IMG/VR virus record: IMGVR_UViG_3300045988_101835
DNA length: 64,000 bases
Strand: one strand, 5' to 3'
Source: a virus
The translations under genes and the position numbers were made by a program. The notes beneath the pieces are model-generated. The model was not told the origin of the DNA and searched no databases. It saw only the letters and a list, made by a program, of their open reading frames with translations. Of the stretch, positions 1,500-61,886 are shown in pieces (the stretch's first letter is position 1; each line of letters starts with the position of its first letter).

Positions 1500-2762
1500 G
1501 GTAAGGCGATTACATACAATTTTACACAACTGTTTGCAATAAACGTAAAATAATTGTAACTTGCTGCCATGCATAAAGTATTCAAATATCGCATTTATCC
1601 GAACAAGGCTCAGCAGTCCTTGCTCCAAGTGACGTTTGGATGTTGCCGCTTCGTGTATAATAAAACACTTGATATTAGGAAGACGGCTTACGAAACCGAC
1701 AAGACGAAGCTTAGTAAGTTTGACCTCATCAAGAGATTAAAGCCACTTAAAGATGAATTCCCGTGGCTGCGCGACGTGCCGCATGTATGCTTGCCGCAAG
1801 CCGTCTACAACATGGATAGAGCTTACCAGAACTTCTTTAAGTCCGACAAAGGCTATCCGAAGTTCAAGACGAAGCATCGCAGCCGCAAATCTTGCAAATT
1901 CCCGTATCCGTTCTGTGATGTGCTTCAAGAGCAAGCGCGGCTCAAGTTTTCTAAATTAGGTTTAGTCAAGTACAAGAAAGATCGGGAGTTCGTTGGTACT
2001 TTACGACACATTGTGGTTACGCAAGACAGCGATGGTAAGTACTACGCTTCATGTTTGGTGGAGACTACTACGGAGATTCCGGAACCGCAACCTGTCGATG
2101 CCAGTACTACGGTCGGTATCGACTTAGGACTTAAAGACTTTATCGTCACGTCGGACGGACACAAGATACCTAATCCACGTTTCTACGCTACTATCGACCG
2201 TCGTATAGCACGCTTGCAGAAGCACGAAGCTAGAAAGACAAAAGGGTCTAAGCGCCGTGCACACATCCGGCTGAAGATTAACAAACTCTATATTAAGAAA
2301 CGCAATTTAATTAAAAATTATATTTACCATGTTGCCAAGACGTTACTGCGTGAAAGCCAAACGCTAGTAATGGAAGACCTTAATATTGTCGGCATGGTTA
2401 AGAATCATAAGTTAGCTAAATCCATTCAGAACATTTGTTGGGGCGAGCTTCGCAGAGTGTTAGAGTATAAGTCGAAGTGGCTTGGTCACAATCTTATTTT
2501 CATAGATCGTTGGGCGCCGAGTACAAAGACTTGTAGTTGTTGTGGTTTTCACAATTCTACGTTAACACTTTCAGATCGTTCATGGATGTGTCCGGGTTGC
2601 GGTACACAACACGACAGAGATGTTAATGCCGCGCTTAACATCAAGCGTATGGGTTTAGAAACATTACTGCCCGCGGTGAGCGGGTTTGACGGACGTGGAG
2701 AGGTCGGTTACGGCTTCGACGAAGCGTCAATATGTGCGAGTTATTAATTGTATATAATCACC
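1500..2762 (+). mobile_element. TnpB-only IS element, copy 1 (about 1263 bp)
   Basis: The left end GGTAAGGCGATTACATACAAT and right end ATTGTATATAATCACC form an imperfect inverted repeat. Homologous copies lie at 39472, 49771 and 60104. Base composition differs from the phage backbone. Confidence 0.7.
1569..2747 (+). CDS. tnpB: TnpB (IS200/IS605-family OrfB, RuvC-type RNA-guided nuclease)
   Basis: FKYRIYPNKAQ..FGCCRFVYN N-terminus. RuvC residues are VGIDLG (D), VMEDLN (E) and HDRDVNAALN (D). Zinc ribbon is CSCCGF..CPGCG. Confidence 0.9.
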   Translation: MHKVFKYRIYPNKAQQSLLQVTFGCCRFVYNKTLDIRKTAYETDKTKLSKFDLIKRLKPLKDEFPWLRDVPHVCLPQAVYNMDRAYQNFFKSDKGYPKFKTKHRSRKSCKFPYPFCDVLQEQARLKFSKLGLVKYKKDREFVGTLRHIVVTQDSDGKYYASCLVETTTEIPEPQPVDASTTVGIDLGLKDFIVTSDGHKIPNPRFYATIDRRIARLQKHEARKTKGSKRRAHIRLKINKLYIKKRNLIKNYIYHVAKTLLRESQTLVMEDLNIVGMVKNHKLAKSIQNICWGELRRVLEYKSKWLGHNLIFIDRWAPSTKTCSCCGFHNSTLTLSDRSWMCPGCGTQHDRDVNAALNIKRMGLETLLPAVSGFDGRGEVGYGFDEASICASY

Positions 2763-2778
2763 TTTCATATGATAGTTC
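2670..2778 (+). ncRNA. Putative omega-RNA (reRNA) scaffold plus flank-derived guide, copy 1
   Basis: Two stem-loops, CCCGC-ggtga-GCGGG (2670-2684) and GAGGTCG-gtta-CGGCTTC (2700-2717), show compensatory changes among copies. The 5' limit is unknown. The guide is assumed to start after ..TCACC at 2762. Confidence 0.45.
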
Positions 2779-3593
2779 AGCTTCCGTCTAATGGTATCTT
2801 TGGTCTCACGCAGACTGTTTTAAACACGCCGCTTGTCGGTCATCTTTCCCAGCTTGCTTCTACGGATTACACGGAGGAGCAGATTCGTCAGGAGTTTGTT
2901 CGTATGCTTCTGGCTCACCCGGAGGACCTTGAGCGCATGACTATCTGCGACCGCGATTACTTGTTCATGATCGCTGCGTCGGGTGTTTGTATGAACCAGA
3001 TCACTACGGACTTTGTTTGTCCTGTGTGTAAGGATGGTGGCAAGGACGTTGTCAGCTCTGTTGTTTATGACATTACTCAGCAGGAGGTTATTGAGCTTGC
3101 GCCTAAGACGCCGTCGGAGGTTAAGAAGACTTGGGATGACTTGGGTGTGGAGTATACTTACCGTATTCTCCGTGCTTCGGACGAGGAGCGCTTGGTCGAA
3201 TATGCTTTAGCCGATTACGATCATTACAGTCTTCGTTATGAGCAGGCTTTCATGGCTGCTACGCTTGGTCAGGATTGTAGCGATAATGAGGCTATCGCTA
3301 AAGGTATTGACGTCATTAGTCAGTATCCGTTAGCGGTTTACTTCTCGGCGTTACTGTTCACGCAGGTTGCGTTTCATGGTGTTCGTCCGAGTATAATGGG
3401 TAAGTGTCACGAGTGCGGTCGTGATGTTAAGGTTTTGGTTCCTTTTGGGGATACGGTTAAGATGCTTGACTCTGCACGTCTTGTTAACCGTTTCTCTCAG
3501 ATTTCACATATGGTTGACTTCAAGTCTTTCTTGGAGCTTTCTATGCCTATGCTTGCGCAGTTTGAGGCGAATGCGCGTGCTCAGGCTAAGTAG
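2769..3593 (+). CDS. Zn-ribbon protein upstream of the tape-measure-like gene (possible tail assembly chaperone)
   Basis: ATG at 2769 lies 7 nt after the IS right end. Contains CPVCKDGG...CHECGRD cysteine pairs. The functional call rests on position only. Confidence 0.45.
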   Translation: MIVQLPSNGIFGLTQTVLNTPLVGHLSQLASTDYTEEQIRQEFVRMLLAHPEDLERMTICDRDYLFMIAASGVCMNQITTDFVCPVCKDGGKDVVSSVVYDITQQEVIELAPKTPSEVKKTWDDLGVEYTYRILRASDEERLVEYALADYDHYSLRYEQAFMAATLGQDCSDNEAIAKGIDVISQYPLAVYFSALLFTQVAFHGVRPSIMGKCHECGRDVKVLVPFGDTVKMLDSARLVNRFSQISHMVDFKSFLELSMPMLAQFEANARAQAK

Positions 3594-7668: not shown

Positions 7669-7700
7669 GGCCGGGGCTTTCCTCGGCCTTCGTTGTGGTT
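7669..7700 (+). terminator. GC-rich hairpin terminator
   Basis: GGCCGGGG-cttt-CCTCGGCC 8-bp stem followed by a T/G-rich tail. Confidence 0.45.
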
Positions 7701-7790
7701 TATGGGGGTTATGCGGGGTTGTGAGTTGTGAGTTGTGGGTTGTGCGGGTTCCGGTATGTTGTGTGGATTTGGTTTCGGCCTTCGTTGTGG
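7683..7790 (+). repeat. GT-rich intergenic repeat block
   Basis: 16-nt direct repeat TCGGCCTTCGTTGTGG at 7683-7698 and 7775-7790. It flanks four tandem heptamers GTTGTGN at 7718-7745. Confidence 0.7.
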
Positions 7791-7845
7791 GTTCCGGGTT
7801 TTACTTAGGGTTGTGTATGCCGTATGGTTGTGGTGTTGGTTTTAA

Positions 7846-7859
7846 GCAATTATATATCC
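7846..7859 (+). promoter_or_regulatory. Conserved late-gene motif GCAATTATATATCC
   Basis: One of eight near-identical copies, each 13-27 nt upstream of a start codon and usually just after a terminator. Confidence 0.45.
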
Positions 7860-18567: not shown

Positions 18568-20067
18568 ATGGAGGATATGTTTGGTGATTTAGGGATTGTT
18601 GACGCGCAGGGTTGGCGTGTCTCCGAGTTTTCTGCTGGCGGTGTTAACTCTCAGAAAGCCCGTCTTGCTTTAGAAGAGCGGTATTGGCCTATCACCGAAA
18701 TAACCGAGCGATTTAATCGTCAAAGCGTCAGTTATCAATTAAGCAAAAGAGATTGTCTGCATAAATGGTTAAAATACAAGGAGGGTTTTTCTGCCGAGTT
18801 GGTCAGTGCCCTTTTGCGTGATTTTCGTTTACAAAAGGGCGATCTAGTAGTAGATCCTTTTATGGGGTCAGGTACGACGGCTTTAGTATCAATGTTCAAT
18901 GGGTACAATAGTCTTGGTTTTGATATTTTGCCTATGTCAGAAATTGCTATTCGTGCAAAGACTGCTATTTATGTATATGATGTATTGGAGCTGAAGGAGC
19001 TTCTTAAAGAGGTGGTAAACTTGCACGTTCCGGAAGAGTATGCAGGGCGCACTCCTGAAATAGGAATTACTAAAGACGGTTATCCCAGTGAGACGAGTCG
19101 TGATTTGGCCTATTATAAAGAACATTTTCTCAATTCCAGATATTCTGAGACTACGAAAATGCTTCTTGAGCTTTGTACTTTGAATGCTTTGGAGCGTATA
19201 AGCTACTCTGCAAAAGATGGGCAATATCTTAGATGGGATTATCGCTGTCCCAAGATTACTGCTGCTTCGGAGGCTAGATTAAGACAGGGTAAGAAGCCTT
19301 TTGCTGTCAAATTGGATAAAGGGTCCTTGCCGTCCCTCAAAGAAGTATTACTGGAAGAATTAAGTGGTGTCCTTCGGGATATAGAATACTTAAATAATAC
19401 TCCTATTGGGTTTGATACGCAATGTAATTTTATTGAGGGAAGTGCGCTTTTTGAATTACCGAAGCTTGCAGACGGAACAGTTAGCGCAGTAATATCTTCT
19501 CCTCCATACTGTAACCGATATGATTACACTCGCACCTACGCTTTGGAGTTAGCCTATTTGGGGTTATCCGAGGCTGATGTGCGGGCATTACGTCAGGACT
19601 TATTGTCGTGTACAGTTGAGAATAAATCTAAAATTGAGCAACTGCGGGATTATTATCATCAAATAGGGCAGGAAGATCATTATGACAGGACAATGAAGAT
19701 CGTCGATGGAAATGCGGCACTTCAAGAAATAAATAACGCTTTGAAGAGCCGTAATGAAAACGGAGAGATAAACAATAAGGGAGTCCTTAAAATGGTGGAT
19801 GGGTATTTCACAGAATTGACCTTTCTGTTTTCTGAGTTGTATCGCGTATGTAAGACTGGTGCATACGTCGCTTTCGTTAATGATAACGTAAGGTATGCGG
19901 GCGAAGTTATTCCGGTTGATTTTCTCACTACCAATTTGGCCGAGCAAATAGGTTTTACTCCAGTAAAGATTTACACTTTAAAGCAACAAAAAGGTAATAG
20001 TAGTCAGCAGATGAAGAGATATGGACGAGTAGCTTTGCGAAAAAGCATTACTATTTGGCAGAAATAG
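18568..20067 (+). CDS. DNA methyltransferase (N6-A/N4-C type, alpha-like motif order)
   Basis: DPFMGSGTT (AdoMet motif I), then about 200 aa, then SSPPYCNRYDY (motif IV SPPY). A-rich composition unlike the phage backbone. ATG at 18568 is in frame with ORF 18382. Confidence 0.8.
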   Translation: MEDMFGDLGIVDAQGWRVSEFSAGGVNSQKARLALEERYWPITEITERFNRQSVSYQLSKRDCLHKWLKYKEGFSAELVSALLRDFRLQKGDLVVDPFMGSGTTALVSMFNGYNSLGFDILPMSEIAIRAKTAIYVYDVLELKELLKEVVNLHVPEEYAGRTPEIGITKDGYPSETSRDLAYYKEHFLNSRYSETTKMLLELCTLNALERISYSAKDGQYLRWDYRCPKITAASEARLRQGKKPFAVKLDKGSLPSLKEVLLEELSGVLRDIEYLNNTPIGFDTQCNFIEGSALFELPKLADGTVSAVISSPPYCNRYDYTRTYALELAYLGLSEADVRALRQDLLSCTVENKSKIEQLRDYYHQIGQEDHYDRTMKIVDGNAALQEINNALKSRNENGEINNKGVLKMVDGYFTELTFLFSELYRVCKTGAYVAFVNDNVRYAGEVIPVDFLTTNLAEQIGFTPVKIYTLKQQKGNSSQQMKRYGRVALRKSITIWQK

Positions 20068-20107
20068 CATTATATTTTTTGCGGTTACCTGTGTTGTATG
20101 CATTTAA

Positions 20108-20180
20108 CGGGCGTGAAGAGGTCGGTTGTGGCTTCGACGAAGCGTCAATATGTGCAAGTTATTAATTGTATATACTCACC
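20108..20180 (+). mobile_element. Solo right end of the TnpB element family (orphan omega-RNA-like 3' module)
   Basis: cgggcgtgaagaggtcggttgtggcttcgacgaagcgtcaatatgtgcaagttattaattgtatatactcacc aligns with the last roughly 73 nt of the four full copies. It retains the GAGGTCG-gttg-TGGCTTC hairpin. Confidence 0.7.
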
Positions 20181-20197
20181 TTTTAAAATAGTATTTT

Positions 20198-20635: not shown

Positions 20636-20667
20636 TTTGGATTTATAATTTTAATTATCTACTTTTG
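20636..20667 (+). promoter_or_regulatory. Bacteroides-type promoter (-33 TTTG / -7 TActTTTG)
   Basis: TTTG at 20636-20639, 20-nt spacer, TAnnTTTG at 20660-20667. Member of a five-copy family sharing tTAATTTAACTTTt. Confidence 0.6.
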
Positions 20668-22705: not shown

Positions 22706-22791
22706 GCTCGGATGGTGAAATAGGTATACACGCCGGATTTAAGCTCCTGTGATCAGCAATGGTCGTGCGGGTTCGATTCCCGCTCCGAGTA
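22706..22791 (+). tRNA. tRNA-Leu (anticodon UAA), type II
   Basis: Acceptor GCTCGGA/TCCGAGT (G1-U72). Anticodon loop TTTAAGC. Long variable arm GATCA-gcaa-TGGTC. T arm GCGGG-TTCGATT-CCCGC. Discriminator A. No encoded CCA. Confidence 0.8.
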
Positions 22792-22811
22792 CTTTTTTTT
22801 TGCAACAAAGA

Positions 22812-22843
22812 TTTGCAACTTTAAATTAACTTTTTTATCTTTG
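22812..22843 (+). promoter_or_regulatory. Bacteroides-type promoter (-33 TTTG / -7 TAtcTTTG)
   Basis: TTTG at 22812-22815, 20-nt spacer, TAnnTTTG at 22836-22843. It sits upstream of a small ORF and the tRNA/RNA island. Confidence 0.6.
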
Positions 22844-22867
22844 CATCAAGTAAATACTTGTGATGGT

Positions 22868-23116
22868 ATGCTCAGAATGATTCATAGTTGGGTTAAGGTG
22901 CTTCGTGGCCTTCGTATTCGGGTCAGTGCGGGTTCTTTGCTCTTGCTCAGTTCAGCATCCCCTATTGCTGTGGGGTCTCGAGTGTGGCATTCGGACTATG
23001 GTATCGGTGTGGTGCGTATTGTTGGGACGTGTGAGTATGTTGTTAGTTTCGAAGCTGGTTTTGAGAGTTCCACGTACAAGATGTATTGCTGCAGGGTTCT
23101 CTGTTCTTTGGGTTAA
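22868..23116 (+). CDS. Small protein with Tudor/DUF3553-like GxRVxHxxyGxGxV motif
   Basis: 82 aa. VGSRVWHSDYGIGVVRIVG...VVSFEAG resembles the small beta-barrel found at UvrD/PcrA C-termini. Confidence 0.4.
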   Translation: MLRMIHSWVKVLRGLRIRVSAGSLLLLSSASPIAVGSRVWHSDYGIGVVRIVGTCEYVVSFEAGFESSTYKMYCCRVLCSLG

Positions 23117-23125
23117 TTTACATTT

Positions 23126-23209
23126 GCCGTCTTGTCGGAATTGGTAGACGAGAAGGTCTCAAAAACCTTTGTCCTTTAGGACGTCCGGGTTCGATTCCCG
23201 GAGACGGTA
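23126..23209 (+). tRNA. tRNA-Leu (anticodon CAA), type II
   Basis: Acceptor GCCGTCT/AGACGGT (G1-U72). Anticodon stem AAGGT/ACCTT with loop CTCAAAA. Variable arm GTCC-ttta-GGAC. T arm CCGGG-TTCGATT-CCCGG. Discriminator A. Confidence 0.8.
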
Positions 23210-23795
23210 CGACTTCCCGACGTGGTTGCCGGGGGTCCCCAGCCTTGAAATGGTAGGTGCTGGGTTTTATATTGTGCACATTCCGGTTTTAGCTTGGTTT
23301 ATCCGTCCGGGTGTGGGTGCGTTGCTAGAGGAGTCTTTCCTACCGTAGGTTCCGTTTGCATAGCTGAATATCAGGCGTGGCGGCTTGGAGTAGCACGGCA
23401 ACAGCTAAGTATGGGTTCTTTTGTTTTCGCTGCAGTTAACGGACATATGGTTAGTCCTTGCTGGGTTTCTTATAAAGGGATTTCTCAGGGGTAGTGCAGT
23501 GTTTAACGAAGTTTGTTTATGGGGCATTATCCGTTCGCCACTATGCTTTGGCTATAAGGATTCATACTTTTTATACGTCTATGGTTTGTGTTCCTTGACA
23601 TAGTGAAGACGGCACCGTCGAGAGTGATACTCTTTCGCTTTTAACCTTTGGAGCTCACTCATCTTTTTCTTCAGGCAATTCCTTGTGCATGTTCTGGATT
23701 TAGCCTGTCACTCTCACTTGTTAGTGGCGTGTGCTGTCTTCACCTTTTTTTTTCAGTGGGACCTGCCTGAAAGTAGAGTAGGGTGTATGTGAATC

Positions 23796-23820
23796 AGGGG
23801 TTCGATTCCTTATACCGACT
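23796..23820 (+). other. Orphan tRNA-like T-arm and 3' acceptor fragment
   Basis: AGGGG-TTCGATT-CCTTA followed by TACCGAC. I could not find a matching 5' acceptor or D/anticodon arm upstream. Confidence 0.25.
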
Positions 23821-23878
23821 AAGTTCGTCGCTGGTTGGTGCTGGTTTGCAATATAGTGCCTTCGGGGTCCTTCTTGTT

Positions 23879-23966
23879 GGAGAGTTGGCGGAGTTGGTCT
23901 AACGCGCCTGCCTACTAATCAGGTGTCCGGGTTTCCGGGCCGGGAGTTCGAATCTCTCACTCTCCG
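23879..23966 (+). tRNA. tRNA-Ser with unusual anticodon ACU (A34), type II
   Basis: Acceptor GGAGAGT/ACTCTCC with discriminator G. 3-bp D stem. Anticodon stem CCTGC/TCAGG (31-39 C-U mismatch) with loop CTACTAA. Variable arm CCGG-gttt-CCGG. T arm GGGAG-TTCGAAT-CTCTC. Confidence 0.7.
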
Positions 23967-24236
23967 CGCCGAGTTGTTTCCGGTTGTGCTCTGAATTTAA
24001 CTGGCGTCGTTCCCGAACGTATCGGGGGATGGTTGAGGTGATACCATCAGAAATCACCTGCGGGCAGACGCGTATTTGTAGGAGTTGACTTGCGTCTATA
24101 TCAGCAGGCTGCGGTTAAGATGTATGAGTTCACCGCTACGGTTGACTGTATTAAAACTCTATTCATCGGTGCTTGTTAAGCGCGCAATGACAGGCATGAC
24201 GTCCCTATCTGCAGTGGCGTGCGTAGGGCTTTTTAG

Positions 24237-24321
24237 GAAAGTTGGCAGAGTGGTCGATTGCGCTGGTCTAGAAAACCAGTGATCCTTTAGGATTCGGGAG
24301 TTCGAATCTCTCACTTTCCGC
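24237..24321 (+). tRNA. tRNA-Ser with unusual anticodon AGA (A34), type II
   Basis: Acceptor GGAAAGT/ACTTTCC with discriminator G. Perfect anticodon stem CTGGT/ACCAG with loop CTAGAAA. Variable arm ATCC-ttta-GGAT. The T arm is identical to the other Ser tRNA. Confidence 0.75.
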
Positions 24322-24422
24322 CGCCCCTCCGGTTGTTAGACCTAATTGGAAGTCGACTAAGATTAGGTTGAGGCAACAGTTGTCTCACTTGCGTTTGCTT
24401 AAGTGTGGCAATGAGAGGGTCC

Positions 24423-26999: not shown

Positions 27000-28375
27000 T
27001 GCTAGGTTTTGAGATTTACTTTTACACGTGTGCGGGCAAGAAGTCGCATCCTGATTTTGACGATTGGTTTTCTCGCTTTTTACAGATTCCTAATTTATCC
27101 AAGAATGACAGGCAGGTTCTAGAGTATACGCTTTCCTGTTCTGCTGCTGGGTGCTATCCGTCTTGGGCATGGTATGGTAAGTATTACCCTACTCCGGACC
27201 ATGCCTATAATCTCGGTGAGCTTAGTGTTGCGTATGCGGACATTGTAGATGGCTATAGCCGCCTTAAGTTGGCTACGGATGTCACGGGTTCCCTTAGTAG
27301 CACTTCGACTACTAAGGAGCTTGCGGAGGAGCTTAAGCGTGCGCTTCAGTCTGTTAGTGTTGCTTCGGATGCGAGTGTCGCTGACTTTAGTTCATGGTCC
27401 TACGGCGAGGAGCTTAATACGCCTTACGGTGACGGTCTTTCTCTGGGTGTTCCGGAGGTAGATTCATTGACCAATGGTTTCCAGCCGGGTACGGTTGCTA
27501 GTATTTGTGCTTTCACGGGCGGCGGCAAGACACAGCTTTGTTTGTCTATGCTGTTCAAGAATGCCAAGGCGGGTCGTAAGATTGTTTATGTGTCTTTGGA
27601 GCTTGAGCCTAAGATGGTTTGGCTTATGCTTGAGACTCGGTACATGTATGAGGTTAAGGGCATCCAGTTGGATTCTCAGGACTTGCTTTTTCATAAGTTG
27701 TCGGGCGATAAGTTGAAGGCGGTTCTTGCTGCCGAGGATGACTTCAAGCGGGACTTCGTTCCTAACGTTCTTGTTGTAGATACTTCGTTGTTCACGAAGT
27801 CGGTTTTCACCAATGTCGATAGCCTTGTTACTTTGTATGGGGTTCTGGATAAGCATTTAGGGGGTCTTGACTGCATTATTTACGACCATGTCAATCAGTT
27901 TGACCTTCTGTTTCAGGATCGTGGTAAGGGCTTAGGAAATTCTATCATTGTCAATCTTCGAGCCGCTTGTTTAGCTTTCACCAATAGTGCGGGTAGTAAG
28001 TGCACTACGGTTTTTGCCGTTCAGGTTAACCGTGCGGGTTTTACCCGTGCGGGTCGTCGTGGCGGGGCTTATGACCTTACAGCTATCTCGGACTTGAATG
28101 AGATCGAGCGCACGAGTGCCTACTGTGTTTTCATGTATACGGGTTTGGACGTTGCGGAGACTCAGGAGACGAAGATCTGTATGATTAAGCATCGTCTTGG
28201 TCGCATCTTGCCGGAACCTGTTACGGCTCAGTTTTTGCCGAAGGTTGTTCTTGTGGGTGATAATGTCGAGTTTATCTCTTACGAGGGTGAGTTTGCGCAG
28301 TTGGGTTCTATGGACGATTTTGGTTCTTCTAGCGACTCTCTTACGGCGGAGCTTACAGCCGATCTAGGTCTATAG
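26999..28375 (+). CDS. DnaB-like replicative helicase (RecA-fold C-terminal domain)
   Basis: Walker A FTGGGKTQ, Walker B LDCIIYDHV, and VFAVQVNRAG (the DnaB QxNR motif). Confidence 0.65.
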   Translation: MLGFEIYFYTCAGKKSHPDFDDWFSRFLQIPNLSKNDRQVLEYTLSCSAAGCYPSWAWYGKYYPTPDHAYNLGELSVAYADIVDGYSRLKLATDVTGSLSSTSTTKELAEELKRALQSVSVASDASVADFSSWSYGEELNTPYGDGLSLGVPEVDSLTNGFQPGTVASICAFTGGGKTQLCLSMLFKNAKAGRKIVYVSLELEPKMVWLMLETRYMYEVKGIQLDSQDLLFHKLSGDKLKAVLAAEDDFKRDFVPNVLVVDTSLFTKSVFTNVDSLVTLYGVLDKHLGGLDCIIYDHVNQFDLLFQDRGKGLGNSIIVNLRAACLAFTNSAGSKCTTVFAVQVNRAGFTRAGRRGGAYDLTAISDLNEIERTSAYCVFMYTGLDVAETQETKICMIKHRLGRILPEPVTAQFLPKVVLVGDNVEFISYEGEFAQLGSMDDFGSSSDSLTAELTADLGL

Positions 28376-28388
28376 CAATTATATATCC
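28375..28388 (+). promoter_or_regulatory. Late-gene motif GCAATTATATATCC
   Basis: Exact copy overlapping the helicase stop codon, 23 nt upstream of the ATG at 28412. Confidence 0.45.
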
Positions 28389-33787: not shown

Positions 33788-35779
33788 ATGTTGTGGGGCA
33801 CTTTTAATGGGTACAAGGTTGGCTTGGTTCAGAGTCTGTCGGATTTGGATTACATCCGGGCAGATTTGCATGCCAATATAGTGGCTGGTTTGGATTCGGA
33901 GACGACGAGCTTATCTTTTGTTCACGGTCGAGTGGTAGGGGTATGTATCGCTACGGGTAAGACTTACAGCAAGGATGACTACTGTGGTTATTACATTCCG
34001 ATTCGTCATGTGGGCTATCACGCCAATCTTCCGGTTGACCTTGTTATTGCTTTCGTGCAGTATGTCGTCGATAATTATATGACGATGTGGTGGAACCGGA
34101 GTTTCGACTTTTCTATGTTGGAGCTTGACGGGTTCAAGGCACCTTTTGTTGGTAAGACTCATGACGTCCAGTTCATGGCGCATGAGATTTTCAATGAGCG
34201 TTATCCTAAGCTGAAGGTCTTTGCTAAGCGTCTTTTTGGGTTTAAGACTATCGACTTCGAGGATAATAATGCGGTTAATGGTAACTTCGGCTCACTCGAC
34301 CCGGAGGTCTCTTTCATCTATGCTGCTGCCGACCCTCTCATCACGACACTGTGTGGTCTCCGTATTTGGAGTGACTATCCTCATATTCGTCAAATTTACC
34401 CGCTGGATAACGAGTCCGGTGAGGCTGTTCGTCGCTTGGCTAAGGCGGATATCCTTCTTGATTATGATTTCTTGGATCAGGAGGTCATTCGCACTTCTGC
34501 CCGCATGGAGGATGTCCGGCAGCGTATCTATCAGCTTGTGGGCTACGTTTTCAACATCAGTAGTGAGGATGACAAGGCGGATGCCTTGAGCCGCTTTGTC
34601 ACGTTGACGGTCCGTACTAAGAGTGGCAAGTTCAAGACGGATAAGAATGTCTTGGCGACGATAGATCATCCGTTAGCTAAGCTTATGCTGGAGTATAATG
34701 CCTTGAGCACTTACTTGAAGTCTTTCGTTTCCAAGATGGTTTCGTGGCGTCATCGTCAGATTCCGGTTCATATTAATTATAACCTTGTCGTGGCGTTGAC
34801 GGGTCGTATGAGTAGCTCCGGGTCGGAGGGTAATGACTTCTACGTTCCTTTTAATGGCCAGAACTGTGTTCGTGGTTCTAATACTACAGTTTTCACTCGT
34901 TCCGGGTCCAAGTTGATTTCGGAGGTTGTTGTTGGTGACGAGGTTTGGGATGGCGATGCTTTTCGGCGCGTGTCTGCGGTTTTGGATCAGGGTGTGCGTG
35001 AGATTTACCGTTTGACTTTGGAGGATGGTCGTTTCTTGGACGCGACATCAGATCACCCGGTTCTCACGGCTTCGGGGTTCCACGAGGTTTCTACGTTACT
35101 CGGGGTCGATGTTTTGGTGAGTGAGAACCCTCATGTTTTCCTGACTGGTGTAGATTGTGGTCCCGCTAGGTACTTATGTAGGGTTGTGTCGATCCACCCT
35201 ATTGGCTATGATCGTGTTTATGACATTACGGTCGATGTATCAGAGCGTTTTGTGGCCAACGGTATTATAGTTCATAATTGCCCGAAGGTTTCTTTGAAGA
35301 TGTATTTGCATACAGATCCTCTTATAGGCTACTGTTTGAAGCATGAGGCGGAGGGTGCTGTGTGTGATGAGTCGGGCAAGCCTATTAAGTATAAGACGAA
35401 GGGAGGACTTCGTGATGCCTTCTTGGCCAACCCGCCGGGGGAGGATGACTGGGTAATGGTTGGCAACGATTATTGTATTCATCCGGATACATTAGTATCG
35501 ACACCTTCGGGAGATGTTCGAATAGGTGATATGGTTGGTTGTGAGTTCGAGGTTTCTACGCCTTATGGTCCTTGCGTTGCTTCTAATGTTCACCATACTG
35601 GTCGTCGCAAGCAGTATCGTATAGAGTTGTCGGACGGTGCGGTTCTGGTTTGCTCTCCAGATCATCGTTTGTGGGTGTGTCGTGATGACGTAGATATGTG
35701 GGTTAAGGCTTCTGAGCTTTTGAGTAGTGATTATATTTACACTCAGTCTGATGTTACTTATCCGGAGATTGTGAGCTAG
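33788..35779 (+). CDS. Family-A DNA polymerase, N-terminal gene (exo domain, palm start, intein 1, IntN of split intein)
   Basis: GLDSETTSL (ExoI), ALTGRMSSS and FNGQN (PNLQN-like), ..VGNDY (motif A Asp). Ends at TAG 35777-35779 inside intein 2. Confidence 0.85.
   Translation: MLWGTFNGYKVGLVQSLSDLDYIRADLHANIVAGLDSETTSLSFVHGRVVGVCIATGKTYSKDDYCGYYIPIRHVGYHANLPVDLVIAFVQYVVDNYMTMWWNRSFDFSMLELDGFKAPFVGKTHDVQFMAHEIFNERYPKLKVFAKRLFGFKTIDFEDNNAVNGNFGSLDPEVSFIYAAADPLITTLCGLRIWSDYPHIRQIYPLDNESGEAVRRLAKADILLDYDFLDQEVIRTSARMEDVRQRIYQLVGYVFNISSEDDKADALSRFVTLTVRTKSGKFKTDKNVLATIDHPLAKLMLEYNALSTYLKSFVSKMVSWRHRQIPVHINYNLVVALTGRMSSSGSEGNDFYVPFNGQNCVRGSNTTVFTRSGSKLISEVVVGDEVWDGDAFRRVSAVLDQGVREIYRLTLEDGRFLDATSDHPVLTASGFHEVSTLLGVDVLVSENPHVFLTGVDCGPARYLCRVVSIHPIGYDRVYDITVDVSERFVANGIIVHNCPKVSLKMYLHTDPLIGYCLKHEAEGAVCDESGKPIKYKTKGGLRDAFLANPPGEDDWVMVGNDYCIHPDTLVSTPSGDVRIGDMVGCEFEVSTPYGPCVASNVHHTGRRKQYRIELSDGAVLVCSPDHRLWVCRDDVDMWVKASELLSSDYIYTQSDVTYPEIVS
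34865..35278 (+). mobile_element. Mini-intein 1 (138 aa) in the PNLQN|IP-like motif
   Basis: Starts CVRGSNTTVFTRSGSKLISEVVVGDEV. Block B is TSDHPVL. Ends FVANGIIVHN followed by C. Confidence 0.8.
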
Positions 35780-35899
35780 TGTATGGGACGCGCTTCTAAT
35801 ATAAAATCCATTTCGGTATTACAGGATGAAGTTGACATGATTGACTTCTCTGTTGCGGGTGCTCATTGCTACTATGCCAATGGTATGTTGGTCCATAAC
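35474..35899 (+). mobile_element. Split intein 2 in motif A (IntN 35474-35776, TAG, TGT, IntC 35783-35899)
   Basis: IntN (101 aa) starts CIHPDTLVSTPSGDVRIGDMV and contains SPDHRLW. IntC (39 aa) is MGRASNIKSISVLQDEVDMIDFSVAGAHCYYANGMLVHN, followed by C. Confidence 0.7.
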
Positions 35900-38707
35900 T
35901 GCTCTGAGGAAATCGCCCTTGTAGCTAACATGTCCCGTGAGGAGGGTTTCTTGTATCCGCTGCGTCATGATCTCGATGTCCATATGTACGTTGCGGAGAC
36001 GCGCTTCCATGTTTCGGACCCTGAGTTTCGTGATAAGTCTAAAGCTGTCTCGTTCGGTAAGATTTACGGTGGTGGTCCTACGATGATCGCTAACCGACTT
36101 GGTATTTCGAAGCAGGAGGCCAATAAGATCATCTATGACTACGATACGGGTATGCCTGTTTTTGCTAGGTGGCAGAAGGCTTTGCAGAAGCAGGCAAAAC
36201 GTACGGGTTTTGCTAAGACGTTCTTTGGGCGCACTATTTACTTGGCTCGGTGGTTTAATTCTCCGGATAACGGATTGCGCGCTTATGCTGACCGAGTTGC
36301 TCTCAACAGTCCAATTCAGGGTCCCACGCCCCCTAACACTCTGATTTTGACCACTTTAGGCTATGTTCCTATTAAGCATTTATATACCTTAGATGTTGCA
36401 GGGCAGCTTGCTCCATATGGTGTTAAGTGTTGGAATGGTGTTCGATGGTGCGATTTTCATGTTGTTGATGCGGGGTTAGGTGATATCCTTCGTTTTAAGT
36501 TCAAGCGTGGCAACTATGTTGACGTTGACGTTCGCCATCAGTTTAAGGTTTGGACTTCGGATGGGTGTGTTTTTGAGGATGCTACTAAGTTGTCGGTTGG
36601 GGATCGTGTTGCGGGGTCTTTGTGCCGTCGCCTTGAGTTCCCGGCACTGACGTTCTGTTGTTCTTCACAGTCGCGGTTGAAGGGTCTGCTTATCTCTCAT
36701 TCTCCCCGTACCCTTTCCTACGAGGATAGCGTGACTTTGATGTGGTGGGTCGGTTATGCTTTAGGTGATGGTAACTTTAGTACGCCTAATGCTATTCGGT
36801 TTACATTAGGGGCTACGGAGACTTTCCGGTATGACGATGCTTCGGCTTTCTTTCCGTCTATTGGTTGTACGGTTGGTAAGTTGAATCATTGTACGGCAGA
36901 TATGCCGGGGCGTAAGGGTGAGTGTTACACGTTCGTTGTGTATGGTGTCGATGTTATGCGGTGCTTGCGGCGCTTGGGTCTTGATTTTCGTTGGCGTCAT
37001 CACACTAAGCGCATTCCGTGGCGACTGTGTTGTTCGTCTATTGCCCAGCGCAAGGCTTTGGTTGATGGATTGTTTGCTTCAGATGGCTGTAAGACAGAGG
37101 AACAGTTCATGTGGCATATGTGCCAGTCGGACATTCTTCGTGACTTGCAGCGGTTGCTTCGGACTTTAGGGTTTGATAGTACTTTGTATGCTGCGCCAGA
37201 TGGTAAGTCCTATCGCTTGGTTGTGTGTGCGACTCAGGATTTCGCTCGGTTTATGGGTTATCCTTTGAAGGAGCAAGCGGGTCGTATTGGTCCGGGTCGC
37301 TGGAATGATCGTCGGATGGTTCCGTCGGTTTTGTGCCAGCGGTTTGTCTCTTGGCAGCAATCGCACGGAGGTCCGTCGCCTGATCTGCCCTCTAAGCGTC
37401 GCCAGTCGGATATGGCATTAATGAGTCGCCTTCGTCATGGTGGTTCTGTTTCGTTTTCGACTTTCGAGAGCTTGGCTTCGGATTATGGCTATACGGAGTA
37501 TCAGACGTGGGATGACTATCTGGAGGCTCAGGAGATCGTTGATATTGTTTCTTTGCCGCCGGAGAACTGCTATTGCCTTTCGTTGGATGATGAAAGCCAT
37601 TGCTACGACACGGATGGTCTTATTTCTCATAATTGTTTACCTCGGTCCTTGTATTCGCCGTCGCAGGATGGTAAGGTTTATTCTCCGTGGCAGTCGTTCG
37701 TCGGCCACCGTATGACTTTCCAGACTCGGTCGGACGGCGCACGTGTTGGCGTTCCTACGTTCCGGGGTGAGCACGACCTTCATGTTGCTTTGTTCGATAC
37801 GGGTGACTTCTGTGTTTGCAATCTGGGTCATAAGTTCGTTAAGTATGGTACGGATCGCGTCTTGCTTGGTTTGGATGAGATAGGTACTGCGCCTGTTGCT
37901 TTGATTCCGCCTATGCGCAAGAGTAAGTGGGGCTGGTTGAAGGGCTTGTTTAGTAGCCATAAGTGGACTTTGGAGTCGCTTCTTGCGCATGGTAAGATGG
38001 GCCGTGACATCCGCACGGACGATTGGGCTGTCTGCTGGTGTATGCTGAAGGCATTTATGACGCGAAAACGGGTCCATACGCGGTCGATGTTATCCGCAAT
38101 GATCCTACGGTCCATCTGCGATCTTTTCGGCTGGAATTTGGTCTACGATTTGCGCCATTCGGTTGTTGATGATTATGCTTTCAAGTTACGGTGGGGTCGT
38201 CGGCGTAAGGGTCACGCTATTTTCGCCACGGAACTTGGAATTCGGGATAACGTTATTTCTCCGTCCATGTCTTCGGGCCTTCAGACTTACCCGTTGTGTG
38301 GCTTCATTCATAAGAACACGGGTGGTGACTTGATTCGCCGTGACTTGGTTAAGTTCGAGCGTTTGAATGATCTGCTCCCGGAGTGGCGTGAGAACGTCCG
38401 CTTCGTGGTTACGGTTCACGATGAGGTCCAGTTCCGTGTTCGCCGTAAGTATTTGTTCAAGGCTATTCCTATCATCCAGAAGGTCATGAACTTCTGGCCT
38501 AAGAATTTTGAGACTCCGGTTGTTGTTGAGCCGGGTGTTGGTTTCCGCTGGGGCGGTGAGCTTGATATTGACGCTGTTCTGGATGACGGTCGTATTGTTC
38601 CTAAAGGTTACATGCCGCCGCCGGAGTACTTCGAGGGCCACGAGGTCTATTGGCTTCGTTCGTGGAAGGAGGAAGAGGAGAAGAAGCGTGGTTTGTCTAA
38701 GAAGTGA
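35783..38707 (+). CDS. Family-A DNA polymerase, C-terminal gene (IntC, motifs A-C, inteins 3 and 4)
   Basis: CSEEIALVANMS (rest of motif A), KAVSFGKIYGGG (motif B), NSPIQG / TGGDLIRR, VTVHDEVQF (motif C). Same frame as the N-terminal gene. Confidence 0.85.
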   Translation: MGRASNIKSISVLQDEVDMIDFSVAGAHCYYANGMLVHNCSEEIALVANMSREEGFLYPLRHDLDVHMYVAETRFHVSDPEFRDKSKAVSFGKIYGGGPTMIANRLGISKQEANKIIYDYDTGMPVFARWQKALQKQAKRTGFAKTFFGRTIYLARWFNSPDNGLRAYADRVALNSPIQGPTPPNTLILTTLGYVPIKHLYTLDVAGQLAPYGVKCWNGVRWCDFHVVDAGLGDILRFKFKRGNYVDVDVRHQFKVWTSDGCVFEDATKLSVGDRVAGSLCRRLEFPALTFCCSSQSRLKGLLISHSPRTLSYEDSVTLMWWVGYALGDGNFSTPNAIRFTLGATETFRYDDASAFFPSIGCTVGKLNHCTADMPGRKGECYTFVVYGVDVMRCLRRLGLDFRWRHHTKRIPWRLCCSSIAQRKALVDGLFASDGCKTEEQFMWHMCQSDILRDLQRLLRTLGFDSTLYAAPDGKSYRLVVCATQDFARFMGYPLKEQAGRIGPGRWNDRRMVPSVLCQRFVSWQQSHGGPSPDLPSKRRQSDMALMSRLRHGGSVSFSTFESLASDYGYTEYQTWDDYLEAQEIVDIVSLPPENCYCLSLDDESHCYDTDGLISHNCLPRSLYSPSQDGKVYSPWQSFVGHRMTFQTRSDGARVGVPTFRGEHDLHVALFDTGDFCVCNLGHKFVKYGTDRVLLGLDEIGTAPVALIPPMRKSKWGWLKGLFSSHKWTLESLLAHGKMGRDIRTDDWAVCWCMLKAFMTRKRVHTRSMLSAMILRSICDLFGWNLVYDLRHSVVDDYAFKLRWGRRRKGHAIFATELGIRDNVISPSMSSGLQTYPLCGFIHKNTGGDLIRRDLVKFERLNDLLPEWRENVRFVVTVHDEVQFRVRRKYLFKAIPIIQKVMNFWPKNFETPVVVEPGVGFRWGGELDIDAVLDDGRIVPKGYMPPPEYFEGHEVYWLRSWKEEEEKKRGLSKK
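36323..37633 (+). mobile_element. Intein 3 (437 aa) with LAGLIDADG homing endonuclease; Pro at position 1
   Basis: Inserted after PIQG. Block A-like PTPPNTLILTTLGYVPIKHL, block B VDVRHQF. LAGLIDADG motifs WVGYALGDGNF and LVDGLFASDG. Block F CYCLSL, ending DGLISHN followed by C. Confidence 0.65.
37634..38317 (+). mobile_element. Intein 4 (228 aa) directly abutting intein 3
   Basis: Starts CLPRSLYSPSQDGKVYSPW. Block B is CNLGHKFV. Degenerate LAGLIDADG-like GWLKGLFSS. Ends CGFIHKN followed by T of the extein TGGDLI. Confidence 0.55.
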
Positions 38708-38944: not shown

Positions 38945-39017
38945 GTATGCATGAGTTTGTAGCAGATTGGGAGTTGGTTATTATTCCTGTTGAGGAATGT
39001 TTTAATAGTGAGGTGGT

Positions 39018-39471: not shown

Positions 39472-40729
39472 GGTAATCATATACAATTTTATTCTGCCGT
39501 TTGTAATAGACGTAAAATAATTATAACTTGCAGCCATGAAGAAGACATTCAAATATCGCATCTACCCGAACAAAGCCCAGCAGGCTTTGTTACAGGCGAC
39601 GTTTGGATGCTGCCGCTTCGTTTACAACAAAACGCTTGATATTAGGAAGACGGCTTACGAGACCGACAAGATGAAGCTTAGTAAGTTCGATTGCATCAAT
39701 CGGATGACTGCGTTGAAGGATGAGTATACGTGGTTGCGTGCCGTTCCTGCGGTTTGCTTGGTTCAGGCTGTTGACAACATGGATACAGCCTACCAAAACT
39801 TCTTCAAATCTGGTAAAGGTTATCCGAAGTTTAAGTCGAAGCATCGTAGCCGTAAGTCCTGTAAGTTTATGGTGCCTAAGTGTGTTGTATTGCAAGATAT
39901 TAGTCGTTTAAAGCTTTCTAAGTTAGGGTTAGTCAAGTACAAGAAAGACCGGGAGTTCGTTGGCGCTTTGCGTCACATTGTGGTTACACAAGAAAACGAT
40001 GGTAAGTACTACGCGTCGTGCTTGGTGGAGACGGGCGTTGAAGCACCTAAGCCAAAGCCCGTTGATGATAGCACAACGGTCGGCATTGACTTGGGGCTGA
40101 AAGACTTTATCGTCACGTCCGACGGGCGCAAGATACCTAACCCGCGCTTTTATGCTACTATTGACCGACGCATAGCTAGGTTACAGAAGCATGAAGCACG
40201 AAAGACGAAAGGCTCGAAGCGTCGTGCCCGCATTCGCTTAAAGATTAACAAACTTTATATCAAGAAGCAAAACTTAATTAAGAATTATATTTACCATGCC
40301 GTCAAGACGTTACTGCGTGAGAGTCAAACGATAGTAATGGAGAATCTTAATGTTGGCGGCATGGTTAAGAATCATAGTTTAGCTAAATCCATACAGAACA
40401 TTTGCTGGGGTGAACTTCGCAGAGTGTTAGAGTATAAGTCTCAATGGCTTGGTCATAACCTTATTTTCATAGATCGTTGGGCACCGAGTACGAAGACTTG
40501 TAGTTGTTGCGGCTTTAAGAATGATATATTAACACTTTCAGATCGTTCGTGGACATGTCCGGGTTGTGGTACGCATCACGACAGAGATGTTAACGCTGCC
40601 CTCAACATTAAGCGTATGGGTTTAGAAAAGTTATTGCCTACGGTGAGTGGGTTCGACGGACGTGGAGAGATCGGTTACGATCTCGACGAAGCGTCAATAT
40701 GTGCAAGTTATTAATTGTATATAATCACC
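39472..40729 (+). mobile_element. TnpB-only IS element, copy 2 (about 1258 bp)
   Basis: Left end GGTAATCATATACAATTTT matches the reverse complement of the right end, GGTGATTATATACAATTAA, at about 16 of 18 positions. It sits between a terminator and an early promoter. Confidence 0.7.
39536..40714 (+). CDS. tnpB: TnpB (RuvC-type RNA-guided nuclease)
   Basis: 392 aa with the same motif set as copy 1 (VGIDLG, VMENLN, CSCCGF..CPGCG, HDRDVNAALN). Confidence 0.9.
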   Translation: MKKTFKYRIYPNKAQQALLQATFGCCRFVYNKTLDIRKTAYETDKMKLSKFDCINRMTALKDEYTWLRAVPAVCLVQAVDNMDTAYQNFFKSGKGYPKFKSKHRSRKSCKFMVPKCVVLQDISRLKLSKLGLVKYKKDREFVGALRHIVVTQENDGKYYASCLVETGVEAPKPKPVDDSTTVGIDLGLKDFIVTSDGRKIPNPRFYATIDRRIARLQKHEARKTKGSKRRARIRLKINKLYIKKQNLIKNYIYHAVKTLLRESQTIVMENLNVGGMVKNHSLAKSIQNICWGELRRVLEYKSQWLGHNLIFIDRWAPSTKTCSCCGFKNDILTLSDRSWTCPGCGTHHDRDVNAALNIKRMGLEKLLPTVSGFDGRGEIGYDLDEASICASY

Positions 40730-40745
40730 CTTTGTTTGTAGAATA
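40637..40745 (+). ncRNA. Putative omega-RNA scaffold plus guide, copy 2
   Basis: Stem-loops CCTAC-ggtga-GTGGG and a perfect GAGATCG-gtta-CGATCTC. Both carry compensatory changes relative to other copies. Confidence 0.45.
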
Positions 40746-43540: not shown

Positions 43541-43554
43541 GCAATTATATATCC
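43541..43554 (+). promoter_or_regulatory. Late-gene motif GCAATTATATATCC
   Basis: Exact copy 6 nt after the terminator and 21 nt before the GTG at 43576. Confidence 0.45.
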
Positions 43555-43575
43555 GATAAATAAAAATAGTTCGTT

Positions 43576-60086: not shown

Positions 60087-60100
60087 GCAGTTATATATCC
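60087..60100 (+). promoter_or_regulatory. Late-gene motif variant GCAGTTATATATCC, interrupted 3 nt downstream by IS copy 4
   Basis: One mismatch to the consensus. No ORF follows it, either before or after the IS. Confidence 0.4.
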
Positions 60101-60103
60101 CAA

Positions 60104-61361: not shown

Positions 61362-61377
61362 TCCCAATGGCCAATTG
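61269..61377 (+). ncRNA. Putative omega-RNA scaffold plus guide, copy 4
   Basis: CCCGC-ggtga-GCGGG and GAGGTCG-gtta-CGGTCTC. The candidate guide tcccaatggccaattg is followed by a T11 run. Confidence 0.45.
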
Positions 61378-61863: not shown

Positions 61864-61886
61864 TATAAATATTTATCAGGGTTACT

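Follow-up and report, generated by a model that had tools for sequence, protein, structure and literature searches.

Four TnpB elements and a solo right end

We analysed 64,000 nucleotides of viral DNA (IMG/VR record IMGVR_UViG_3300045988_101835; hereafter, the window) that carry a family of elements encoding TnpB. A repeat search and a four-way alignment of the window identified four units of ~1.26 kb that are 76-89% identical to each other at the nucleotide level, with similarity that begins GG(T/C)(G/A)AT and finishes ATCACC. These four full copies, which we refer to as c1 to c4, occupy positions 1505-2762, 39472-40729, 49771-51026 and 60104-61361 on the plus strand, and their tnpB genes lie at 1569-2747, 39536-40714, 49833-51008 (with a GTG start codon) and 60168-61346. 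Copy c1, measured from inverted repeat to inverted repeat, falls between an open reading frame (ORF) at 737-1495 and a gene whose ATG is at position 2769. A fifth unit consists of the 3' end alone, and was delimited by the repeat search (families D1-D8) as 100 nt at 20085-20184 (family D7). A first-pass annotation of the window had described the same four diverged copies and the solo end at essentially these positions, with c1 now beginning at 1505; it overlooked the 16-25-nt terminal inverted repeats of the elements and the target-site duplications that flank them.

The element starts with 16 nt (GGTGATTATATACAAT) that are the reverse complement of its final 16 nt (ATTGTATATAATCACC). The two ends match at 16/16 positions in L010 and 15/16 in L021 (L-numbers denote related phage contigs), and 14/16 in c1 and c2; in c1, the left repeat is GGCGATTACATACAAT (1505-1520), with its partner ATTGTATATAATCACC at 2747-2762. 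Where the right-end variant is GTGTAAAATTGTAYATAATCACC, as in L020, the inverted repeat grows to ~23-25 nt. The overall element ends can be written as (A)GGTGATTATATACAAT[TTTACAC] ... ATTGTATATAATCACC(T), with 16-25-nt terminal inverted repeats. Copy c3 has a degenerate left repeat, and its right end is mutated to ATTGTATGCATTCACC. We found only one change shared between the left and right repeats of a copy (c4, position 12) and, because this change is accounted for by helix 5 of the RNA scaffold described below, we make no claim that the two repeats covary. The distance from the tnpB stop codon to the right end is 15 nt. A tnpB 3' end within 250 bp of the transposon end and symmetrical inverted terminal repeats are features of DDE-type inverted-repeat transposons that carry TnpB (PMC10691335), and these elements have both. 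All copies in the window are co-oriented with transcription, and the large window ORFs are all on the plus strand. The description of the elements as co-oriented and intergenic applies within the window but not to relatives, among which are an antisense copy (L021) and one that lies within a gene (L014).

The TnpB proteins of c1-c4 (392, 392, 391 and 392 amino acids (aa), respectively) all have Pfam matches to HTH_OrfB_IS605 (PF12323), OrfB_IS605 (PF01385) and Cas12f1-like_TNB (PF07282). TnpB of c1 aligns with ISDra2 TnpB (PDB 8BF8/8EXA) over residues 2-363 with E=3e-63 and ~38% identity, and its GIDLG (D185), VMEDL (E269) and HDRDxNAA (D351) motifs align with the ISDra2 catalytic motifs. Residues D185, E269 and D349/D351, together with C322/C325/C341/C344 of the CxxC..CxxC zinc ribbon, are invariant in 10/10 intact family members, in agreement with the first-pass observation that every copy keeps the RuvC D/E/D residues and the zinc ribbon. 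Judging from these alignments, TnpB of all four copies is an intact, active-looking RNA-guided nuclease. We considered and rejected the possibility that the proteins are TldR, a nuclease-dead TnpB-like repressor, given that the catalytic residues are intact and the loci are polymorphic. Pairwise comparisons of c1-c4 gave dN/dS values of 0.05-0.11 with dS of 0.85-1.45, and the median dN/dS over 91 pairs was 0.09. Within the tail of tnpB that overlaps the RNA scaffold, dS is 0.24-0.56, versus 0.85-1.45 in the remainder of the gene. Hence, the paralogues are old, and each copy is under strong purifying selection.

A predicted omega-RNA scaffold at the right end

An alignment of 22 distinct right-end modules, taken from the window, IMG/VR, one metagenome-assembled genome (MAG) and metagenomes, was used to predict RNA structure. 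RNAalifold predicted five helices in the final 137 nt of the element; 98.4% of cells are paired and there are 25 additional types of pair. The structure has a covariation score of 0.213, versus no more than 0.089 for slid controls, and 0/500 shuffles reached the observed value. The predicted scaffold occupies 2626-2762 in c1, where it overlaps the last ~40 tnpB codons and scores 156.7 bits with a covariance model, and the corresponding positions in c2, c3 and c4 are 40593-40729, 50890-51026 and 61225-61361. The solo right end (20043-20180, plus strand; 73.8 bits) retains helices 3-5 and the inverted repeat (20165-20180) in intact form and has a decayed helix 2. The last helix, helix 5, uses the right-end inverted repeat. 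The scaffold overlaps the 3' end of tnpB as well as the element's right end, as in TnpB/OMEGA systems.

Two hairpins that had been reported as covarying in the tnpB 3' end correspond to helix 2 (GCCYGC/GCGGGT) and helix 4 (GAGGTCG/CGGCTTC, GAGATCG/CGATCTC or GAGGTTG/CAACTTC), and their covariation held up in a proper alignment of the 22 variants. Helix 4 lies in coding sequence, and the amino-acid changes V/I, G/D/N and F/L preserve the stem; in L246, the helix has been swapped for GGGGACTC/GAGTCCCC. Exchanges of G-U with G-C or A-U are frequent in the right-end helices, indicating pairing at the RNA level rather than the DNA level. The covariance model, built from the 22 sequences as the first-pass annotation had proposed, recovers all five 3' modules of the window, as well as relatives with 51-61% TnpB identity, and gives weak matches at the 3' ends of distantly related cellular tnpB genes from Firmicutes and Bacteroidaceae. 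In a broader, model-fitted alignment, 25/32 pairs have compensatory changes and 91% of cells are paired, versus 34-40% for slid controls. Searches of Rfam found only tRNAs in the window at gathering thresholds, and nothing around the c1 right end (2450-2800) at E-values up to 10; on this basis we also rejected an IStron, in which TnpB is combined with a group I intron. A putative omega-RNA scaffold in the tnpB 3' end is well supported by these comparisons.

A third hairpin proposed earlier, a stem at the left end of the element, did not survive the same treatment: it is 78.7% paired in a 15-sequence alignment, a value matched by 158/500 shuffles. The conserved core of the left end is TTG (columns 40-42), a spacer of ~20 nt, and TAACTTG ending 7 nt before the tnpB start codon; relatives with ~60% identity have TATCTTTG in place of TAACTTG. 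This core (TTTG-N20-TAACTTG, 7 nt before ATG) would most simply be a Bacteroidota-type promoter for tnpB, rather than a hairpin.

Filled and empty alleles reveal target-site duplications

Related phage contigs that are 93-97% identical to the window in the regions flanking the elements differ in which sites are occupied, with gain or loss of an element at no fewer than nine sites mapped on the window or just upstream of it. The empty c1 allele, CAAATTAATTTCATATGATAG, is found in L015/L016 and reads TAA-TTTCAT-ATG, with two genes separated by 6 nt; in the filled allele, TTT alone is duplicated and a 6-nt filler, TGGTAA, precedes the left end. Copy c4 is absent from L005, which has the empty allele TTATATATCCCAATGGCC, and the filled site has TCCCAA on both sides as a 6-bp direct duplication (60098-60103 and 61362-61367). 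Copy c3 is absent from L017/L018, and its insertion replaced ~23 nt that include the original ATG of the downstream gene. The start of the encoded protein has changed from MNTYWFSAIE in the empty allele to MHSPWFSAIE in the window, with the in-frame ATG coming from the right end, ATTGTATGCATTCACC.

Elements at sites that are empty in the window give a similar picture. An extra element in L001 has the 8-mer TGCATGAG on both sides, and the empty target is at 38948-38955 of the window (plus strand, as for the targets that follow). The antisense element in L021 targeted GCAATTA at 28375-28381, within a promoter-like motif, and is flanked by a 7-bp duplication (TAATTGC), with a 53-nt filler at the left junction for which we found no match among the sequences compared here. 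An element in L248/L249 lies at the target TAAAAATA (43561-43568), which is separated by 6 nt from a promoter-like motif at 43545-43554; this duplication is imperfect, its two copies having diverged in the filled allele. L005, which lacks c4, has an element at GGGTTACTATGGC (61878-61886). The L014 copy is flanked by TTTCAAGA, an 8-mer that is present once in the empty allele of L245, where it lies within a gene resembling NUMOD-domain homing endonucleases (L245 5163-6170, upstream of the window region); the TnpB element interrupts this gene in L014. Lastly, a copy in L007 replaced 300 nt of a tRNA region (window 23574-23874) that is conserved in relatives.

Duplications of 6-8 bp were thus checked against empty alleles for TCCCAA, TGCATGAG, TAATTGC and TTTCAAGA, and three more (TATGTATA, TTGATTTA and TATCTTTG) were inferred from the two flanks only. 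Clean duplications follow the pattern T-N6-A, and the target stagger is ~8 bp. The right junction is exact in every case, with ATCACC followed nearly always by T; the left junction is sometimes untidy. The pentamers immediately 5' of the left end vary among copies, such that there is no conserved target there.

Given the inverted repeats and the duplications, the elements fail the defining tests for IS200/IS605: they do not have IS200/IS605 architecture, although their TnpB is a typical IS605-type protein. Members of the IS200/IS605 family lack both inverted repeats and target-site duplications (review: PMC13565253). Canonical TnpB-only members of this family (IS1341-type) would be mobilised by a Y1 TnpA acting in trans, through single-strand peel-and-paste transposition 3' of a fixed target-adjacent motif (TAM), without duplications. 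The close sequence relationship between these TnpBs and ISDra2 TnpB is as expected from such an origin, and Y1 transposition does occur in this system, since a complete IS605 is present in a sister phage (L024 1284-2939; CANQWS010000032.1; 1,656 nt), with a Y1 TnpA of 132 aa and, on the other strand, a divergent 376-aa TnpB. Nonetheless, the ends of that IS605, which are canonical subterminal hairpins (CCCACGGCTAAAGCCGCGGG), are quite unlike the ends described here, the 5 nt before our left ends are unconserved, the left-end hairpin fails the shuffle test, and the 16-25-nt inverted repeats are accompanied by 6-8-bp duplications checked on empty alleles. We therefore give the IS200/IS605 explanation hardly any credence. 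The L024 IS605 sits in the left inverted repeat of the c3 orthologue; a member of the same IS605 family abuts the left end in L023, and a solo gene of this type is present in L250/L251.

Four of the ten insertion sites mapped on the window are within ~25 nt of one of eight TGCAATTATATATCC motifs (p ~0.003, by a rough binomial estimate with an intergenic-only baseline of ~7%). A 22-nt motif, TGCAATTATATATCCnATAAAT, has eight copies at 7850, 11191, 28379, 28881, 43545, 46089, 60091 and 61854, all on the plus strand, intergenic and just upstream of genes. Several copies come after terminator-like hairpins, and TnpB-element insertions cluster at or just past the motif; for example, c4 is located 3 nt past the motif at 60091-60100. 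The motif probably represents a phage-specific promoter class. Clustering of insertions could reflect a target preference or selection for expression, and elements inserted just downstream of phage promoter motifs would also receive read-through transcription. The suggestion that the right end of c1 replaced a late promoter is contradicted by the empty allele, which has no such motif, and the right end resembles TGCAATTATATATCCnATAAAT only over an AT-rich 8-mer core. Something comparable did happen at c3, where the insertion took the ATG of the downstream gene and the mutated right end provides the new in-frame start codon.

Guide positions match vacant alleles

The guide position, by analogy with other TnpB systems, is the first 16-20 nt past ATCACC, which start with the duplicated target. 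The downstream flanks of the four copies were quoted correctly in the first-pass annotation, and those of c1, c3 and c4 match empty alleles in related phages at 20/20, 19/20 (with the first position mismatched) and 16/17 positions. For c1, the putative guide, TTTCATATGATAGTTCAGCT (2763-2782), spans the start codon of the downstream gene and is identical to the empty allele of L015/L016; for c2, the guide would begin at 40730. Reading from the upstream side into the guide match, the vacant alleles are AAATTAA then TTTCATATGATAGTTCAGCT for c1, ATACTTAC then TGGTTTAGCGCC for c3, and TTATATA then TCCCAATGGCCAATTG for c4. In ten targets, vacant or inferred, the guide match is preceded by the 5-nt sequences ATTAA, ATATA, AGGTA, ATATA, ATAAA, AATTA, ACTTA, TGGGT, AGGGT and TAAAC. 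When we compared by eye the listed left flanks of new insertions with the listed guides of other copies, we saw no resemblance of the kind that insertion at TnpB cut sites would produce.

The same inverted repeats bound other cargo

We scanned IMG/VR for the left repeat with a degenerate 20-mer pattern and compiled 19 repeat-bearing viral loci; a scan with the exact 16-mer inverted repeat returned mostly chance occurrences among the matches listed. The 20-mer scan detected further elements with c1-type TnpBs, down to 58-61% identity (a relative with 51% identity came separately), as well as five chance or unrelated occurrences within a conserved gene. It also detected a second TnpB clade between the same repeats, in elements of ~1.2-1.35 kb (L191 1377-2722, L234 3909-5129, L241 and L199). 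These proteins, of 366-407 aa, are 22% identical to c1 TnpB and have GHN at the position aligned to the canonical RuvC Glu, and the elements have 8-bp duplications that include TATCTTTG and TTGATTTA. The right end of a second-clade element folds back on an internal copy of the left repeat. A third kind of element, ~325 nt long, has the repeats with neither tnpB nor the omega-RNA scaffold; such elements were found at two different loci in phage contigs of ~150 kb (L143, reverse complement 3009-3335, with the same element in L197; and L130 7865-8188), one of them with the 8-bp duplication TATGTATA.

That three different cargoes, one of them encoding no protein, have the same ends argues for a transposase acting in trans. 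As the first-pass annotation had stated, the elements lack TnpA; indeed, Pfam searches of 46 window ORFs found no transposase, integrase or reverse transcriptase. Nor did we find a transposase in neighbouring 10-kb stretches of related ~139-142-kb phage genomes, a transposase partner beside TnpB relatives with 47-62% identity (all of which are solo genes in phage-like contexts), or a DDE transposase among the 19 repeat-bearing viral loci. The closest published architecture is that of DDE-associated TnpB branches, for which inverted terminal repeats, and solo TnpBs sharing ends with transposase-bearing copies, have been reported (Altae-Tran et al., 2023; PMC10691335).

An alternative possibility is that no protein transposase is involved, and that the TnpB-omega-RNA complex itself recognises both ends. 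Since the 3' part of the omega-RNA is the right inverted repeat, it would be complementary to one repeat strand at each end. Such a mechanism would explain why two unrelated TnpB clades and TnpB-less elements have repeats in common, and why ~140-kb phage genomes that harbour as many as about ten copies show no transposase; break repair after RNA-guided staggered cuts would account for the variable duplications, fillers and deletions at the left junction. We regard this scheme as very improbable.

Elements are more similar than their flanks

We compared elements with their surroundings in orthologous regions using 1,256-nt sliding windows, in five comparisons that involve four relatives, with two of the comparisons on the same contig; a sixth comparison, with a fifth relative (L024), was based on flanks. 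The element is the most conserved 1,256-nt stretch in 4/5 comparisons. Copy c1 is 99.92% identical to its orthologue in L014, whereas the flanks average 95.2% and the best other sliding window reaches 97.8%. The corresponding values for c3 and L019 are 99.6%, 93.2% and 98.2%; c3 is 99.84% identical in L024, versus 94.75% for the flanks, and c4 is 98.0% identical in L008, versus a flank mean of 95.2%. For c1 and L245, the element is 99.76% identical, and 4/353 sliding windows are equally high. At the c2 site, L001 has a different, mosaic lineage of the element that is only 85.8% identical, versus 93.8% for the flanks, and at the c1 site L222 has the right end of another lineage. Presence or absence at a site in close relatives, with the element above its flanks in conservation, is the pattern expected of homing elements.

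That orthologues are far more alike than their flanks indicates that the elements are currently moving. The earlier proposal of long-term retention rather than recent transposition is therefore correct in one respect, because the paralogues are old (dS ~1), but not in the other, because sites are being gained and lost. Taken together, these comparisons point to a population of divergent elements that phages acquire, lose and exchange, and that have lately been copied from one phage genome to another at fixed sites; now and then an element moves to a new site.

General homologous recombination, with rare illegitimate insertion at breaks, might produce the same distribution, in which case TnpB would be irrelevant to mobility and the repeats would not be transposase sites. 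Fillers and deletions at left junctions do resemble break repair, there are other 100%-identical blocks along these genomes, and in the comparison of c1 with L245 the element does not stand out from those four other windows. By contrast, recombination of this kind does not readily explain why ~8-bp T-N6-A duplications recur at independent sites with three different cargoes, or why the small TnpB-less elements, and TnpB elements down to 51% protein identity, have retained the inverted repeats; moreover, purifying selection on tnpB and the RNA scaffold requires a function. We consider it quite unlikely that recombination alone accounts for the family.

A function might instead be one that serves the phage. 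If the copies were domesticated, TnpB and its RNAs would be kept for a benefit, such as exclusion of competitors or provision of regulatory or translational signals, and would no longer be selfish. Strong purifying selection on all four copies, the start codon that the c3 right end supplies to the downstream gene, the retention of a solo right end beside an acquired methyltransferase gene (see below), and the co-orientation of all window copies with transcription would each fit such a role. Nonetheless, every site is polymorphic among phages that are 93-97% identical to the window, and no copy is universally kept; some orthologues have decayed (L008/L009 and L010), and the insertions in L021 and L014 are antisense and gene-disrupting, respectively. 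Exclusion of competitors is indistinguishable from homing on present data. We view domestication as unlikely.

A proposed model for transposition and homing of the elements

We propose, with a probability of roughly 60%, that these elements make up a family of phage-borne, non-autonomous transposons with inverted-repeat ends, in which TnpB and an omega-RNA serve as a drive module. A transposase supplied in trans would recognise the inverted repeats and catalyse de novo insertion; this enzyme is probably of the DDE type and probably host-encoded. The same repeats would mobilise the second TnpB clade and the ~325-nt TnpB-less elements. The omega-RNA scaffold ends in the right inverted repeat, and the RNA would read on into the flank, which occupies the guide position. 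TnpB-omega-RNA may then cut the vacant allele in a co-infecting related phage, and recombinational repair would copy the element together with some flanking sequence, amounting to transposon homing, or gene drive, among phages. Drive of this sort, together with ordinary recombination between paralogues, could maintain purifying selection while presence or absence at each site stays polymorphic.

Several observations weigh against this proposal. The main weakness is that the ten sites yield no TAM consensus and show, at best, a slight bias towards A in the final position; cutting of vacant alleles is therefore conjectural and may be confined to some sites. Either the TAM is relaxed or homing is possible for some copies only. 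No transposase with these repeats was found in a repeat search that left out ~30-50 kb of the phage genome and all host genomes. Junctions can be irregular, as illustrated by the 3-nt duplication and 6-nt filler of c1, the 53-nt filler in L021, and the 23- and 300-nt target deletions of c3 and L007. Some orthologues are decayed: in L008/L009, the third RuvC Asp is lost through a frameshift, and in L010 the ORF is cut short by a premature stop codon. The phages are generally mosaic and share further blocks of 250-750 nt that are 100% identical, and recombination combined with a sweep could mimic homing. Lastly, the broad alignment with compensatory changes in 25/32 pairs was itself fitted to the covariance model.

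Relationship to known systems

Cas12 descends from TnpB, the natural role of which is known almost wholly from bacterial chromosomal IS200/IS605 elements. The OMEGA system, consisting of an IS605-family TnpB and an omega-RNA, was reportedly established by Karvelis and by Altae-Tran in 2021, and by Meers in 2023. The elements described here share with ISDra2/IS605 TnpB the protein family, the domain order (HTH/WED-REC, split RuvC, zinc ribbon) and the RuvC D/E/D residues, as well as an RNA scaffold that overlaps the tnpB 3' end and the right end, a guide position in the flank immediately 3', and a proposed cycle in which the vacant allele is cut and recombination restores or spreads the element. 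They differ in having neither Y1 TnpA nor subterminal DNA hairpins, in having inverted-repeat ends, a 6-8-bp duplication and no fixed 4-5-nt target or TAM at the left end, and in belonging to a lineage found in phage contigs only.

Fanzors, which are said to have been described as eukaryotic or viral proteins by Bao and Jurka in 2013, and DDE-associated TnpBs offer a closer parallel, with TnpB inside symmetrical inverted terminal repeats, the tnpB 3' end near the transposon end, and the guide read from the flank. As noted above, solo TnpBs that share ends with transposase-bearing copies have been described among DDE-associated TnpBs, for example the IS630-linked DDE-6 branch (PMC10691335). Unlike those systems, we found no DDE gene in any member of the family; the duplication is ~8 bp (T-N6-A), whereas that of IS630/Tc1 is TA; and a single set of repeats serves two unrelated TnpB clades and TnpB-less elements, in a tailed phage of the Bacteroidota type.

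A third comparison is with intronless homing and the free-standing homing endonucleases of T-even phages (seg and mob), which are likewise selfish nuclease genes, mostly intergenic and co-oriented, present in some phages and absent from close relatives, with the element and adjacent flank more alike than the rest of the genome. Recognition by TnpB, unlike that by seg and mob endonucleases, would be RNA-guided and self-reprogrammed at each new site, and defined transposon ends with duplications make new loci reachable. For TnpB elements, gene-drive or homing behaviour has been demonstrated with plasmids in the laboratory and suggested to occur naturally in phages. A review (PMC13565253) considers homing between phages or plasmids. 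The family described here places an active-looking TnpB and its candidate guide RNA inside inverted-repeat transposons of tailed phages from human and animal guts, in parallel to eukaryotic Fanzors, and provides population-genomic evidence that elements of this kind are copied between diverged phage genomes at fixed sites. Copy c3, whose right end provides a gene's start codon, also illustrates how elements become entangled with phage genes. Both allelic states, the putative guides and the candidate targets have been established for c1, c3 and c4, which lend themselves to simple experiments.

The phage and its other features

The phage has no close cultured relative: INPHARED contains no match to the window DNA by megablast, or to a 1,220-aa window protein by tblastn. 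The window is T-skewed, with a GC content of ~48%. Near-identical or identical TnpBs are encoded on metagenomic contigs of 139-145 kb, from which we place the window at ~57.6-121.6 kb of a ~142-kb phage genome. A pattern-based scan of one genome per species for 185,579 species found relatives with 85-96% identity in a single Muribaculaceae MAG only, on two contigs, of which the 88.4-kb one is phage-like; the next best matches, in Lachnospiraceae and others, have no more than 46% identity. A large protein database contains ~79 clusters at 81-100% identity, with further groups at ~57-62% and 48-51%; nearly all of these clusters are metagenomic, one being named Caudoviricetes, and many are from contigs of 130-145 kb. 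The lineage thus appears confined to this phage group. Related genomes hold several more elements of the c1 type, including a 21-kb stretch with four TnpB genes, three of which are of this type and one of which encodes a 369-aa IS605-type protein.

Matches to the Bacteroidota promoter consensus, TTTG-N18-22-TAnnTTTG, are in excess in the window (8, versus 2.3 expected), and all are on the plus strand. A repeat family (D9), in which TTTG-N20-TAnnTTTG is followed by a short hairpin, is present at 20636, 22812, 25044, 40746 and 56089. The promoter excess and the D9 family support a Bacteroidota host, which we consider likely.

Pfam searches of the 46 ORFs also identified SNF2 and DnaB helicases, an M23 peptidase, an N6/N4 methyltransferase, and fn3 and BACON domains. 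The family A DNA polymerase is encoded by two adjacent ORFs (33788-35779 and 35783-38707), with intein-splicing matches in both and a LAGLIDADG match in the second; the gene is split, intein-laden, or both, and L248/L249 have the same layout. The immediate neighbours of c1 have no family matches; downstream are an 814-aa protein and an M23-peptidase protein that matches tape-measure and endolysin families. It is plausible that c1 lies within a tail operon, as first annotated.

The methyltransferase gene (18568-20067, plus strand) has a GC content of 0.43 and is weakly skewed, and its stop codon is 17 nt ahead of the solo right end. L007 lacks both the methyltransferase gene and the solo end, with homology picking up at window position 20181. 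This arrangement looks like the outcome of an acquired methyltransferase gene displacing the greater part of a TnpB element, of which the RNA module survived.

Other genes for mobile endonucleases were also seen, namely NUMOD-type genes in related phages and, in a phage-like contig that is more distantly related, GIY-YIG genes. Four genes for tRNAs with long arms, Leu(taa), Leu(caa), Ser(act) and Ser(aga), lie at 22706-24322. The window also has two pairs of short direct repeats, one of 41 nt spaced by 92 nt (7683-7815) and one of 48 nt spaced by 444 nt (62252-62743).

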